In this document: piece after piece, positions 35,946-41,896 of the stretch
Numbering within the stretch: the stretch's first letter is position 1
How the letters are laid out: every line of letters starts with the position of its first letter
Origin: a bacterium
GTDB lineage: Bacteria; Patescibacteriota; Microgenomatia; Woykebacterales; RBG-16-39-9b
DNA: 64,000 bases
Reading direction: 5' to 3'
Assembly (NCBI GenBank): GCA_030704665.1
Contig: JAUYID010000009.1
Location: 160,454-224,453 of the forward strand
The notes under the pieces: generated by a model
What the model saw: only the letters and a program-made list of their open reading frames with translations
What the model was told of the DNA's origin: nothing
Database searches by the model: none
Program-made: the position numbers and the translations under genes

Positions 35946-36722
35946 ATGAAACTTCGAGTAATTTTTTTGCTTATTTTCATAACCCTTTTTTTAACAAGCA
36001 AAGCTTTTGTTTTGGCCCAAGATTTCAGCAACGGACAAATAGCAAAAAATCTGCCGGTTGAAGACAAGGGTGTGTCTAGCGGTGACATAGTTTCCAAAAG
36101 TGACACTGGTCTAGTTCGAGCCAGCAGCGCCTATGACAAAAACCTTTTCGGGGTCGTCGTTGAAGATCCGAGTTTGAGTCTAAACAAAACATCCTCAGAG
36201 AGTTTCCCAATAGTTTCTTATGGTGTATCAAAAGTTAAATTAAGTGATCAAAATGGATCAATAAAAAAGGGCGACTTCGTCACCTCAAGCAAAACTCTTG
36301 GCGTTGGTCAAAAAGCGACAGACTCTGGTTTTGTCCTGGGTAGAGCTTTGGAGGACTTAAACTCAAAAACTGGACAAGTCTCAGTTTTTATCAATATTCA
36401 GTACAAGGCCGCCGACAGTCCGCAAAATGCCGTTTCTAAGGCAATTTCCAAGGCGGCTGAAGCTTTTACTTCTCAGCTTGAAAACCCTGAAAATTTTCCC
36501 GTGATACTGCGTTACTTACTCGCGGTTATCTTGGCTGGTCTGTCCTTCGGCTTTGGTTTCCTTTCCTTTGTTCGGGCCTTACGACGAGGCATTGATGCCA
36601 TTTCCAGAAATCCTTTGGCCAAAGGTAGCATCCAGTTTGTGGTCTTTCTGAATTTGGTCGGAGTCTTTGTGATCAGTGCCGCAGGAGTTGGTCTCGCTCT
36701 TTTTATCATTTTTTATAAATAA
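35946..36722 (+). CDS. ATP synthase F0 c-subunit-like hairpin fused to a secreted N-terminal domain of about 180 aa. Atypical first gene of the atp operon.
   Basis: Signal peptide MKLRVIFLLIFITLFLTSKAFVLA, then a soluble beta-rich domain. The C-terminal 75 aa read AVILAGLSFGFGFLSFV...ISRNPLAKG...FVVFLNLVGVFVISAAGVGLALFIIF: a two-TM hairpin with GxGxG helix 1 and an R-N-P loop. Helix 2 has no Glu or Asp at the ion-binding position. No atpB precedes it. Confidence 0.5.
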   Translation: MKLRVIFLLIFITLFLTSKAFVLAQDFSNGQIAKNLPVEDKGVSSGDIVSKSDTGLVRASSAYDKNLFGVVVEDPSLSLNKTSSESFPIVSYGVSKVKLSDQNGSIKKGDFVTSSKTLGVGQKATDSGFVLGRALEDLNSKTGQVSVFINIQYKAADSPQNAVSKAISKAAEAFTSQLENPENFPVILRYLLAVILAGLSFGFGFLSFVRALRRGIDAISRNPLAKGSIQFVVFLNLVGVFVISAAGVGLALFIIFYK

Positions 36723-36724
36723 AA

Positions 36725-37429
36725 ATGCAAGAGTTTTTTTTCATCAGCCTTTTACTAAACGCCCTCGCTCTGATCTTGGTTGTCTTCTTGGTTTATCGAG
36801 GAGACAAGACTCTAAACGAATTTCGTCCGTATGCAAAAGACTTAGCTCGGTCTAGAAAAGAACTCGATGAGCAGGCGTTTAGTATCGTTTCTCAAGCCAG
36901 AGCCCTGGCCGAGCAAATTGTTAGGAACGCTACTAGCGAGGGTGAGGTAAATGTTGAGGCAAGTAGAACATTAACAAAAACCCTGGAGGGAAGTTTAGCC
37001 AGGCAGCTTCAAGAAACAGTCTCAGAAAGTAAAGAAATGATACAAAGAGAAACAAGGGACAGTGTTGAGAACTATCAAAAAAATCTGCTGGATCTAAGTA
37101 TTGATTTGGGAAATTACAGCAAAGAGCTAAAAAAGAAACTCTTGGACCAAGCCAACAACGAAATTTCCTCTCTTTCCCAAAGTATTGAAGAGGAGATTTT
37201 GCAGGTGAGAGGGGAAACAGAGAAAAAAATTAACCAGCGTTTGGCGAGCAGCGAAGCAGAAATTTTAGCTTTGCAAGAAAAGAAAATCAAATCTATTGAG
37301 GAAAACATTTATCAACTCCTAACAGAAATAGCCAAAAAGACTCTCGGCAAATCAATTGATTTGACAACCCACGAAGATCTTGTCATGGAAGCGCTCGAAA
37401 AAGCCAAAAAGGAGAAATTTTTCTCATGA
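36725..37429 (+). CDS. atpF: ATP synthase F0 subunit b
   Basis: One N-terminal TM helix, then a long charged coiled coil. Position in the operon. Confidence 0.7.
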   Translation: MQEFFFISLLLNALALILVVFLVYRGDKTLNEFRPYAKDLARSRKELDEQAFSIVSQARALAEQIVRNATSEGEVNVEASRTLTKTLEGSLARQLQETVSESKEMIQRETRDSVENYQKNLLDLSIDLGNYSKELKKKLLDQANNEISSLSQSIEEEILQVRGETEKKINQRLASSEAEILALQEKKIKSIEENIYQLLTEIAKKTLGKSIDLTTHEDLVMEALEKAKKEKFFS

Positions 37430-37929
37430 ACAGTGAAGAGCTTGCAGCTAAACTACTTGCTCAACTCAACACTCAGGAAGACCTCATCAACTTGGTTGAT
37501 GAGCTCGAGGCTCTCTCAAGACGAGTTTTTCAAGCCGGTAAGCTCAAGGAAGAGGTCAGAACAAAATTCAGCCCGAGGTTAGAAGAAGTTTTTGTAGTCC
37601 TAAGGCAAGAGCAAGCTAGGCTCTCTAGTTCAGAAGACCAGGAAAGATTTTTCAGAGAACTAGTTAATTCTTTACTCAAGGTTAAAATTGCCAAGATTGT
37701 CTTTGCCTTTACTCCGAGTCAAGAGTTTTTAGAAAAGATAAAAACTCTTCTTGAGCAAAGGACAAAGGAAAAAATAGTTCTCGATATCTCTATTCAAGAG
37801 GAATTGATTGGCGGAATCCAAATCGAGTACAACGGTCTTTACCGTGATTATTCAGTCAGCACTGCCCTGGAAAACTTCTTTAACGACAAAACACAAGTAA
37901 ACACTTTGATACAGAAGGGGAGACTTTGA
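37426..37929 (+). CDS. atpH: ATP synthase F1 subunit delta (OSCP)
   Basis: 167 aa helical protein between b and alpha. 4-nt overlap with atpF. Confidence 0.65.
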   Translation: MNSEELAAKLLAQLNTQEDLINLVDELEALSRRVFQAGKLKEEVRTKFSPRLEEVFVVLRQEQARLSSSEDQERFFRELVNSLLKVKIAKIVFAFTPSQEFLEKIKTLLEQRTKEKIVLDISIQEELIGGIQIEYNGLYRDYSVSTALENFFNDKTQVNTLIQKGRL

Positions 37930-39398: not shown

Positions 39399-40269
39399 CC
39401 AAAAAGAGCTTAAAAACGAAATAAGCACAGTTTCGACAATTCAATCAATCACCAGTGTTTACCAGGGCATTGCTTCTTTGCGCATGAATCAGATTAAAGA
39501 TAGTGTAGCGGAAAACAAAAAATTTATTGATGGTATTGCCGAGATTTATGGTCACGCCAAAACTGCCTATTTAGCCGATATTCAAAAACAACTGAAGAGC
39601 AAAGATCGGGAGAAAAAAAACGACCTTTCTTTTATCCGAAGAAACGGAAAGTCAGTCCTGGTTTTGGTTTCAGCTAACGAGCATCTTTATGGGACCCTAA
39701 TCATCGATGTTTGGAGAAAATTTAGCGCTGAACTCAGGGAAAAACCAGGGGATTCAGTGGTGATTGGCAACTTTGGTAAAAGTTTGATCGTCAATGAAGT
39801 GACTCACACCCCAATCCAATACTTCGATCTGGCTGACGATAACCCAGATCCGGCCCAAATAAAAAAGATAATTCAATTTATCACTCAGTATGAGACAGTG
39901 ATAGTTCACTTTGGCCAAATGCGGACTTTGCTGACTCAAGAACCGACCCGAGTCGAGATCACCGGTGGTGTTGCTTTGGATAAACCAATAGAAACCCCCA
40001 AGAAATACATTTTTGAACCAACACCGGCGAAAATAATGGAGTTTTTTGAGAGCGAAATAATTGCTACTTTGTTTAATGAAAAACTGCTCGAGCATCAGTT
40101 GGCTAGGTTTTCCTCACGAATGGTGGCCATGGATCAGGCAACCCAAAACGCTGGTTCTTTACAAACAAATCTAAAAAAAGATCTGACAAATATTAAAAGA
40201 AGACTGACTAATATCCGACAACTAGAAGTCTTTTCCGGAATGAGCATTTGGGGAAAGGAGAAGAAGTGA
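39391..40269 (+). CDS. atpG: ATP synthase F1 subunit gamma
   Basis: 292 aa. N- and C-terminal coiled-coil helices. Operon position between alpha and beta. Confidence 0.75.
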
Positions 40270-41636
40270 TGGAAAGTTTTGGTCATATCCTTTCCGTCCG
40301 GGGTAATGTCGTCGAGGTTGAATACAAAAAAGACCAACCGGAACGACACGAACTACTTAGTCTCGAAGACAATCAGGAAATTGCTCTTGAAGTTTATAGT
40401 AGTTTACCTTCTGATATCTTTGTCTGCATCTCTTTGACTGATCCAAACAAACTTTCTCGCGGTTCAAAAGTAGTTCGAACCGGGGCAAGCCTAAAAGTTC
40501 CGGTCGGTCCGCAGTTGCTTGGACGTTTGGTAAATCTCTTTGGTCAGCCGATTGATGGTTTGGAGAAGCTAAAAACTGCTGAGACCAGGGAAGTTTACCG
40601 TGGCAGTCCTAACTATGACGAAGTCCGAAGTGGGACGGAATTTCTCGAAACTGGAATTAAAATTGTTGATTTCTTCACTCCGGTCAAAAAAGGGGGTAAA
40701 ATTGGAGTCTTTGGTGGCTCAGGCGTGGGCAAGACGGTCTTGCTTTCTGAGCTGATGCACAACATTGCTGTCTTTCACAAAGGAGTCTCGGTTTTTACTG
40801 GTATTGGAGAGCGTATCCGAGAAGGGCATGAACTCTATGAAACATTGGCTCAAACCAAGGTTTTGCCAAACGTAGCCTTGGTTTACGGGCAAATGAATGA
40901 ATCAGCAGCAGTGCGTTTTCGAGTCGGCCAGACAGGACTTACTTTTGCAGAATACTTTCGTGACGAGCAAAAGAAAGACGTCCTTTTCTTCATTGACAAC
41001 ATTTACCGCTTCGTTCAAGCTGGCAATGAAGTCTCAACTCTGCTAAACACGATTCCTTCCGAAGAGGGTTATCAGGCCACGCTGGCTGGAGAAATGGGGG
41101 CTTTTCAGGAGCGTCTCGTTTCGACCAAAGAAGGGTCAATCACTAGTGTTCAGGCAATTTACGTACCAGCGGACGATCTTTCTGATGCCGGTGTACAAGC
41201 AATCGTTCCTTACTTTGATTCGGTTGTTACTCTTTCTCGGGTTGTTTACCAGGAAGGTCGTCACCCAAGTGTCGATATCTTGACTTCATCATCTTCTTTA
41301 GTTCAAGCTTCAATTCTTGGGCTGGAACACTACGAAGCGTTGCTTGAAGCTGAAAAACTTTTGAAACACTATACCTACATGCAACGAATTGTTTCGATCA
41401 TGGGGGAGAGTGAACTTTCGGTTGAAGACCGCTTACTCTTTTACCGAGCCAAAAAACTCTTAAATTATATGACTCAGGATATTCATGTCGTTGCCGATCA
41501 GACCGGAGTTCCGGGTAAATACATTAAACGAGAAAAGACAGTTAAAGACGTAAGCGCTATTCTTGGCGGACAAGTCGATCAAGTGCCAGAGGAGCGCTTT
41601 CTTTACATTGGGGATCTTTCAGAATTAAAGCAATGA
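40269..41636 (+). CDS. atpD: ATP synthase F1 subunit beta
   Basis: Walker [11 protein letters not shown]. Beta blocks ([32 protein letters not shown]). ATG at 40269 after AAGGAG preferred over TTG at 40248. Confidence 0.85.
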
Positions 41637-41896
41637 GTGACAAAAACTTTCTTGAAGTTAGTTTAGTTTGGTCTCCATCTTTAAAACAACAAGGCTATTC
41701 CGGACAAGCTCTGGCGGTTTCTTCGGAAAACAGTCTCGGTAAGTTTGATATCCTGCCGCAGCACGCCAACTTTGTAACCCAGATAAACAAGCAACTCACT
41801 ATTCATACTTTGGACAAAAAAGAAACCAAATACGAGTTTAACCGCGGTGTCCTCGAAGTCAGTGAAAATATAGTCCGGATTTTCCTGGGAATTTAG
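41633..41896 (+). CDS. atpC: ATP synthase F1 subunit epsilon (short, 87 aa)
   Basis: Beta-sandwich N-domain pattern ([12 protein letters not shown]). Overlaps the atpD stop. Last gene of the operon. Confidence 0.65.

Follow-up and report, generated by a model that had tools for sequence, protein, structure and literature searches.

Hairpins without an ion-binding carboxylate, such as c1 of Acetobacterium woodii and the duplicated c subunits of V-type ATPases, still assemble into rotor rings, and the F1-like ATPases of mycoplasmas, which have no proton-conducting F0 and are tied to very large surface proteins, are thought to use hydrolysis for a mechanical job at the cell surface. In the account of Beven and colleagues from 2012, the latter are said to be F1-like X0 ATPases of type 2 (the gliding motor of Mycoplasma mobile) and type 3 (linked to MIB-MIP). 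For the Patescibacteria (candidate phyla radiation, CPR), Kantor et al. (2013; mBio e00708-13, PMC3812714) remarked, in two sentences in all, on an ATPase operon of the closed WWE3 genome RAAC2 whose subunits a, b and c were unrecognisable and on a putative c subunit common to OP11 and WWE3 genomes; a 2024 perspective (PMC11665869) still regards the enzyme of CPR bacteria as an ordinary ATP synthase whose purpose is puzzling, the usual guess being that it runs backwards to pump protons. Here we describe a seven-gene operon of an ultrasmall CPR bacterium, from a 64-kb stretch of a 938,369-bp contig (JAUYID010000009.1, with GenBank protein MDP2671053.1 and locus tag Q8P13_01160; the stretch is hereafter called the window, and positions are counted from its first nucleotide) that is a derived F-type ATPase. 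It has no gene for subunit a, and its first open reading frame (ORF1) encodes a c-like hairpin that lacks the membrane carboxylate and is fused to an exported domain; judged by its sequences, the complex probably moves no ions, despite a complete F1 motor.

The seven ORFs lie on the + strand at 35946-41896, separated by 2-nucleotide (nt) gaps or overlapping, in the order c-like, b-like, δ, α, γ, β, ε, with ORF1 in the place of atpE, immediately ahead of the b-like gene (Table 1). An earlier note on this DNA had read them as a 258-aa fusion followed by atpF-atpH-atpA-atpG-atpD-atpC with tight or overlapping junctions, and had seen no atpB between the divergent promoter and atpF. The coordinates match, Pfam and NCBIfam models name five of the genes, and the intergenic stretch from 35786 contains no atpB; because the divergent upstream gene ends at that position, there is no room for one, and neither atpB nor atpE occurs between that gene and atpF. 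When all six-frame ORFs of the window were searched by phmmer with E. coli subunit a and six c sequences, no match to subunit a or to a canonical c subunit was obtained, and the best, weak match to the c queries was ORF1 itself (E = 0.0045 against spinach c). In the NCBI annotation ORF1, the b-like protein and ε are each a 'hypothetical protein'.

The hairpin of ORF1, whose helices span residues 181-221 and 223-256 in an AlphaFold2 model, lies below the reach of curated models: the family has no Pfam model, ORF1 has no significant Pfam or NCBIfam match, and its best c-subunit model is PRK13468 (E = 0.27). Alignment to a c-subunit profile, which the earlier note had proposed, gave a divided answer, since PF00137 (ATP-synt_C) itself matches none of 56 family members at E ≤ 1, whereas a profile of the family hairpin, compared with all PDB sequences, finds F-type c chains as its six best matches (E = 0.001, 0.0031, 0.0056, 0.0061, 0.035 and 0.094) and puts F241 at the ion site. 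The same c matches are recovered, with weaker E-values, by a profile of full-length ORF1; hhalign of the hairpin with an alignment of a few c subunits yields E = 1.2e-5 and a probability of 81%; and the modelled hairpin superposes on c subunits with a root-mean-square deviation of 1.2-1.8 Å. On these comparisons we regard the hairpin as a diverged homologue of subunit c, though one below curated thresholds.

The carboxylate of c subunits aligns to F241 of ORF1 in all alignments. Among 265 distinct family hairpins, 146 of them representing clusters at 50% identity, this column is occupied by I, L, V, A, S, F or T and never by Asp or Glu (0/265), and neither core of the two transmembrane (TM) helices contains an acidic residue. 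The R-N-P loop is present in 265/265; N236, which lies five positions ahead of the carboxylate column, is kept in 240/265, and T244 is common, both residues lying within TM2. What the earlier note had said of helix 2, namely that it carries no Glu or Asp and has an Asn nearby, holds throughout the family for the missing acid and in most members for the Asn. Its picture of a c-like hairpin with a GxGxG helix and an R-N-P loop stands for the loop and needs correcting for the helix, the run GLSFGFGF being peculiar to the window sequence and the family consensus being GGGSFxxGF with only G204 invariant. The non-canonical, possibly non-translocating F0 that it had suggested fits a c-like hairpin without carboxylate in an operon without an a gene.

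The exported part of ORF1 precedes this hairpin. In the AlphaFold2 model, which was built on a 56-sequence alignment and has a mean pLDDT (predicted local distance difference test) of 87.6, an N-terminal hydrophobic helix is followed by a confidently folded β domain, a linker helix and the hairpin (Table 1). A small-x-small motif followed by Q, E, D or G is conserved in the family alignment, ORF1 having V-L-A/Q at residues 22-25, and cleavage of such a signal peptide would leave the β domain outside the cell. This placement fits, as far as the model goes, what is known of c subunits, in which the loop lies on the cytoplasmic side and both termini lie on the outside. The signal peptide, the soluble N-terminal domain and the extracytoplasmic c N-terminus claimed from the letters alone are all consistent with this model, and the structure prediction proposed for the domain returned it at a pLDDT above 90.

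In the predicted structure the β domain has the fold of the autochaperone fragment of phage phi29 gp12 and of phage capsid decoration or cement proteins. The fold comparison lists the C-terminal autochaperone fragment of phi29 gp12 (3gqh) at 14.0, the HFTV1 capsid stabilisation protein at 12.8, the Sf11 decoration protein at 11.2, the phi29 head-fibre base at 10.1 and the XM1 minor capsid protein at 9.7; Foldseek agrees with these phage-fold matches, and weak Pfam matches occur within the family to PF23982 (30/56 members) and PF11962 (Peptidase_G2 IMC; 10/56). Such phage modules assemble as trimers. Many giant CPR proteins also have one or two copies of the domain close to their C-terminus, and the two kinds of copy differ at their start, where a D-x-A-E motif is present in 52/68 copies in other proteins and in 1/41 ORF1-type copies; the ORF1 type otherwise carries (I/L)-I-A-(K/Q/R)-N in its place, and the window ORF1 lacks the motif. 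If D-x-A-E corresponds to the G2 autocleavage site, as we presume, mature ORF1 would resemble an already released autochaperone fragment tethered to a membrane hairpin.

The F1 sector retains its catalytic motifs. The β subunit scores above the 462.85-bit cut-off of the atpD equivalog model (Table 1) and keeps the P-loop, GERxRE, the Walker B Asp/Arg and YVPADD, with family counts of 31/31 for the P-loop, 31/31 for GERxRE and 27/31 for YVPADD; among PDB sequences it matches bacterial F1 β with E = 1e-125, the Mycoplasma G1-ATPase being farther away (3e-93). The α subunit has atpA as its best NCBIfam match (425-448 bits, under the cut-off) and contains the P-loop GDKKTGKT and SVSRVG. Pfam gathering scores are exceeded by α (PF00006/PF00306), γ (PF00231), δ (PF00213) and the N-domain of ε (PF02823), and since NCBIfam equivalog cut-offs are not reached by these four subunits, they are diverged members of their families. 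Models of the Mycoplasma F1-like proteins (MSC_0618/0619 and MMOB1660/1670) gave 384/570, 264/520, 372/850 and 343/600 bits relative to their cut-offs, all below the atpA and atpD scores, and models of N-ATPases or alternate F1F0 enzymes (TIGR03305, TIGR03324 and related) gave 453/752 bits for β and 375/750 bits for α, with negligible values for γ and ε.

Two stalk subunits are altered. The ε subunit consists of the β-sandwich domain only, with no C-terminal helical domain, and because other family members are just as short (median 89 aa), it has none of the helices by which bacterial enzymes restrain hydrolysis. The b-like protein has one N-terminal TM helix, a long and variable coiled coil and a conserved C-terminal stretch of ~55 residues; it matches TIGR01144 weakly (E = 9.5e-4 on residues 132-225, far under the cut-off) and E. 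coli b residues 102-149 by hhalign (P = 0.007), and stays under every curated cut-off. Its TM helix is hydrophobic, and since its sequence is not conserved across the family, it resembles a general-purpose anchor more than a helix that binds subunit a. This is the pattern one would expect, from the sequences, if δ were still bound and a no longer docked.

Neither the protein nor the operon is confined to this genome. A homologue search with ORF1 returned 704 matches, the best 120 of which are all ~245-285 aa long and none informatively named, and an exhaustive search over representatives of clusters at 50% identity counted 726 of them at E ≤ 1e-30, a breadth that implies strong purifying selection. 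A scan of GTDB species representatives, together with look-ups, gave 83 loci, with record titles naming Woyke-, Wildermuth-, Nealson-, Curtiss-, Woese- and Cerribacteria and Paceibacterota; where binned metagenome-assembled genomes are labelled 'Saccharibacteria' or 'Gammaproteobacteria', the label is in many cases probably generic. At least 36 other CPR loci show the order ORF1-b-δ-α-γ-β-ε. Exported domain and hairpin are fused in all 41 ORFs with a hairpin among the 83 loci and in 266/270 database proteins, and the N-domain carries many invariant residues in the family alignment. With whole protein and operon conserved in hundreds of lineages, the sequences place the features of ORF1 and its operon far beyond what chance would be expected to produce.

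The absence of a and c genes is equally general, for the a and c queries and profiles found no match within ~10 kb in any of the 83 loci, and the precomputed Pfam annotation of neighbouring genes contains neither ATP-synt_A nor ATP-synt_C. Genes occupying gaps in or beside the operon were considered as a hidden a subunit and rejected, none being a polytopic membrane protein: a soluble, enzyme-like ORF of ~570 aa lies between ORF1 and the b-like gene in two loci (L029, 5058-6794; L030, 3343-5046), a response regulator and a histidine kinase lie between α and γ in L013, and the 238-aa gene upstream in L002/L003 encodes a Zn-ribbon/IS1595-like soluble protein. By eye, the ORF inserted in L029 and L030 resembles cofactor-independent phosphoglycerate mutase.

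Table 1. Window coordinates of the operon, of the parts of ORF1 and of adjoining features.
Feature	Positions	Strand	Basis and remarks
Candidate extended -10 promoter element TGTTATAAT	35916-35924	+	read by eye, low confidence; 21 nt 5' of the ORF1 ATG
ORF1, 258 aa	35946-36722	+	
ORF1 signal peptide, residues 1-24	35946-36017	+	hydrophobic helix 2-17 (AlphaFold2); predicted cleavage V-L-A/Q
ORF1 exported β domain, residues ~30-155	36033-36410	+	AlphaFold2, pLDDT >90
ORF1 linker helix, residues 161-178	36426-36479	+	AlphaFold2, pLDDT 71-75; joins exported domain to membrane hairpin
ORF1 c-like hairpin, residues 181-257	36486-36722	+	PENFP boundary, TM1, R221-N222-P223 loop, TM2 with N236
b-like peripheral-stalk gene, 234 aa (atpF position)	36725-37429	+	
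δ (OSCP)	37426-37929	+	PF00213 E = 9.7e-12, above gathering score
F1 α	37926-39398	+	PF00006 E = 6.8e-65; start probably ATG 37929
F1 γ	39391-40269	+	PF00231 E = 1.6e-28
F1 β	40248-41636	+	TIGR01039 512.6 bits; start TTG 40248 or ATG 40269
ε, 87 aa	41633-41896	+	PF02823 E = 1.8e-9 over residues 19-83
Divergent 2370-aa membrane/surface protein	28674-35786	-	putative link to the operon
Downstream genes, tightly spaced	41899-48441	+	770-aa exported protein, Cache sensor, histidine kinase, response regulator; putative link to the operon

Upstream of ORF1, the candidate element TGTTATAAT matches an extended -10 perfectly, and no obvious Shine-Dalgarno sequence occurs between it and the ORF1 start. 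It is not among the sites of a promoter and terminator consensus scan, in which promoter-like sites were no commoner than in shuffled sequences.

Surrounding genes encode very large surface proteins and signalling components. The divergent 2370-aa protein begins with two weak MerR-like helix-turn-helix repeats (PF00376, E = 3.6e-4, under the cut-off), which are followed by a TM helix and a very large exterior portion, and the operon has a homologue of residues ~9-520 of this protein upstream of it in 17 or more species loci (L002/3, L005, L006, L009-L016, L018, L022, L023, L025, L027 and L028), the conserved N-terminal module thus comprising the MerR-like repeats, the TM helix and the proximal exterior part. 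In ~13 loci (L001, 4652-9844 (-); L019, 16615-18021 (-); L020, L024, L026, L031, L033, L037, L041, L056, L061, L071 and L079) the operon is adjoined by a protein of 430-3400 aa that carries the exported domain of ORF1 near its C-terminus, in most cases with D-x-A-E retained. A membrane protein of 740 aa in the window (26263-28485, -), with an O-antigen-ligase-like Wzy_C domain and TPR repeats at its C-terminus, likewise recurs beside the cluster of ATPase and giant-protein genes in many loci (L001, 2406-4601; L002/3, L007-9, L011-13, L017, L023 and L056).

On the other side, a 770-aa exported protein (41899-44211, +) begins 3 nt after the ε stop codon and combines fn3-, Big- and CarboxypepD_reg-like domains with a C-terminal thioredoxin-fold AhpC/TSA-Redoxin domain; no homologue of it was found beside the operon in other loci. 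It is followed by a two-component system of Cache sensor, histidine kinase and response regulator (44211-48441, +), and a response regulator-histidine kinase pair stands after ε or within the operon in nine other loci, eight of them distinct because L002 and L003 are duplicates (L002/L003, 15765-17632; L007, L008, L015-L017 and L023; L013, 9024-10765, between α and γ). With giant surface proteins, the Wzy_C protein and two-component systems as neighbours, the gene neighbourhood points to cell-envelope biology rather than bioenergetics.

Elsewhere in the window, a second giant ORF of 1645 aa (48867-53804, -) has a phage-integrase SAM-like N-terminus (PF02899, 5.4e-14) and is another very large protein with a DNA-binding-type N-terminus. 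A partial rRNA operon occupies 12-4197 (+), with tRNA-Ile(GAT), tRNA-Ala(TGC), 23S (999-3916) and 5S (4081-4197), and two more tRNA-Ala genes (CGC and GGC) lie at 26032-26198 (-). The G+C content, ~0.44-0.47 elsewhere, rises to 0.565 at 18001-20000, where the peak covers a 459-aa ORF (18332-19711, +) and long antisense ORFs.

The reading that we favour, with slightly better than even confidence, is that the operon encodes a CPR-specific derivative of the F-type ATPase, a rotary enzyme that would hydrolyse ATP without moving ions and have the cell envelope as its object. Subunit a and the carboxylate-bearing c ring, which make up the half of F0 that conducts ions, would have given way to a ring of ORF1, whose invariant R-N-P loops would grip γ-ε. 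The catalytically intact α3β3, working in the direction of hydrolysis, would turn γ-ε while being held by δ and a b-like stalk that is simply anchored in the membrane. No ion would cross the membrane, and the mechanical output would be rotation of, or torque on, a crown formed outside the cell by the ORF1 domains, which would act on the envelope, with the co-encoded giant surface proteins as a possible target of the crown. Such a scheme is consistent with the retention, as far as the sequences tell, of both the rotor side (γ, ε and the R-N-P loop) and the stator side (δ and the b-like protein) of the machine, and with the apparent loss of the ion path, there being no a gene in the operon and no carboxylate in the family. 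More tentatively, many CPR 'ATP synthases' may constitute a new class of ATP-driven rotary surface machine, whose crown would actuate or assemble giant surface fibres.

Several points weigh against this scheme. Formation of a ring, its rotation and the extracellular load are steps that we infer, as are the contact with γ and ε and the envelope target, and it is hard to account for the delivery of useful torque when the stator is held by a lone TM helix. Homology of the hairpin to c subunits is statistically moderate (E ~1e-3 to 1e-5) and stays short of the curated thresholds of Pfam and NCBIfam. The scan for a and c genes covered the 64 kb of the window within the 938-kb contig, so that canonical atpB and atpE genes may lie elsewhere, or a hybrid ring may be formed. 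As to the envelope, a search of the 2370-aa neighbour in the window for the exported domain of ORF1 gave no match, and the neighbourhood associations are lineage-dependent, hold in some lineages only and are raw co-occurrence counts.

The alternative that survives best, although we hold it to be unlikely, is a conventional H+- or Na+-translocating F1F0 with its a and c genes elsewhere, in which ORF1 would be an accessory or a minor part of the ring, as c1 is in the hybrid ring of A. woodii. The limited share of the contig that was scanned leaves space for such genes, split atp operons exist in other bacteria, and hybrid rings with carboxylate-less hairpins are known, the c1/c2 chains of 4bem being among the PDB matches of the hairpin profile. 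Split operons, however, normally keep b together with a and c, whereas here the b-like gene, with its unconserved TM helix, stays beside ORF1 in the atpE slot; the operon without a or c is uniform across lineages, with 0/83 loci having either gene within ~10 kb; and the invariance of the R-N-P loop implies that ORF1 itself contacts γ and ε. Moreover, no recognisable a, b or c was reported for a related closed genome (Kantor et al. 2013, PMC3812714).

Improbable, in our estimate, is a membrane-tethered F1 without rotary output. It might be a relic or have a regulatory task, or it might, much as the ATPase complex of type III secretion does, serve as a static platform or chaperone on which surface proteins are assembled. 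Such a role would suit the missing membrane stator, the assembly-autochaperone fold of the exported domain and the giant surface proteins with the same domain that adjoin the operon in ~13 loci, but γ, ε, δ, the b-like protein and the R-N-P loop are kept across hundreds of lineages, and these are parts that a rotor and stator need and a static ATPase does not. We give slightly less credence still to continued ion movement by a route without carboxylate, either through the ring lumen or through Asn236 with Thr244 and an unrecognised partner protein. Both residues lie in TM2 and are frequent in the family (N236 in 240/265), yet an Asn within the membrane is equally explained by packing between helices, the operon contains no a-like or other polytopic membrane gene in any lineage, and we know of no F-, V- or A-type rotor that transports ions without a membrane carboxylate. 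Finally, the internal GTG or TTG start by which the earlier note had thought a normal c subunit might arise, leaving the N-terminal part separate or spurious, is scarcely credible, because the sole candidate, a GTG shortly ahead of the hairpin (codon 186), has no Shine-Dalgarno sequence, corresponds to Glu in most homologues and would yield a product still lacking the carboxylate, while the N-domain has many invariant residues, a confident fold and a universal fusion to the hairpin.

If the favoured scheme of a non-translocating rotary ATPase is right, its consequences reach beyond this locus. For many CPR lineages the sequences argue for an enzyme with no proton channel in its operon and no ion-binding rotor, in which case calls of 'complex V present' made from α, β and γ matches would mislead for these organisms. 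A functionally new rotary surface machine has a substantial, if clearly minority, chance of being the correct description of the complex; were it so, the persistence of an F-type ATPase in bacteria that have no respiratory chain would be explained, and the machine would be a functional parallel to the Mycoplasma gliding motor. The ORF1 family, with its 726 clusters, is a concrete target for structure prediction, cryo-electron tomography and biochemistry.

Compared with the literature, the remark of Kantor et al. (2013) is the only account that we found of an apparently similar operon, and no account was found of the loss of the carboxylate, the fusion to an exported domain, the absence of a or the breadth of the family. 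Their report is likewise silent on these four features and on the gene neighbourhood, and the likeness of the RAAC2 protein to the ORF1 family is one of description. Against the canonical F1F0 operon (atpBEFHAGDC), the window operon shares the gene order from the c position on, a β subunit of atpD level, intact catalytic motifs and the R-N/Q-P loop; it differs in having no a gene, in a c-like subunit that has lost the carboxylate and gained a signal peptide and an exported domain of ~150 residues, in an ε subunit without C-terminal domain and in a longer and very diverged b-like protein. The exported domain differs from its phage counterparts in position, since the phi29 gp12 autochaperone and the decoration proteins have it at the C-terminus of a fibre or on the capsid whereas in ORF1 it is N-terminal to a membrane hairpin, and from most other copies of the fold in having lost D-x-A-E.

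Within hybrid rings of the A. woodii c1 or V-type kind, carboxylate-less hairpins are a minority and work with an a subunit; in a ring of ORF1, by contrast, all copies would lack the ion site and bear an exported domain, with no a gene alongside. The F1-like systems of Mycoplasma belong to another lineage and have other subunits, whereas the window α and β subunits score best as true atpA and atpD. Should a rotary motor with extracellular output be confirmed, it would represent a second, independent recruitment of F1 for mechanical work at the surface, after the mycoplasma F1-like ATPases, and one that has kept δ, a b-like stalk and a hairpin derived from subunit c, none of which is known from the Mycoplasma clusters.

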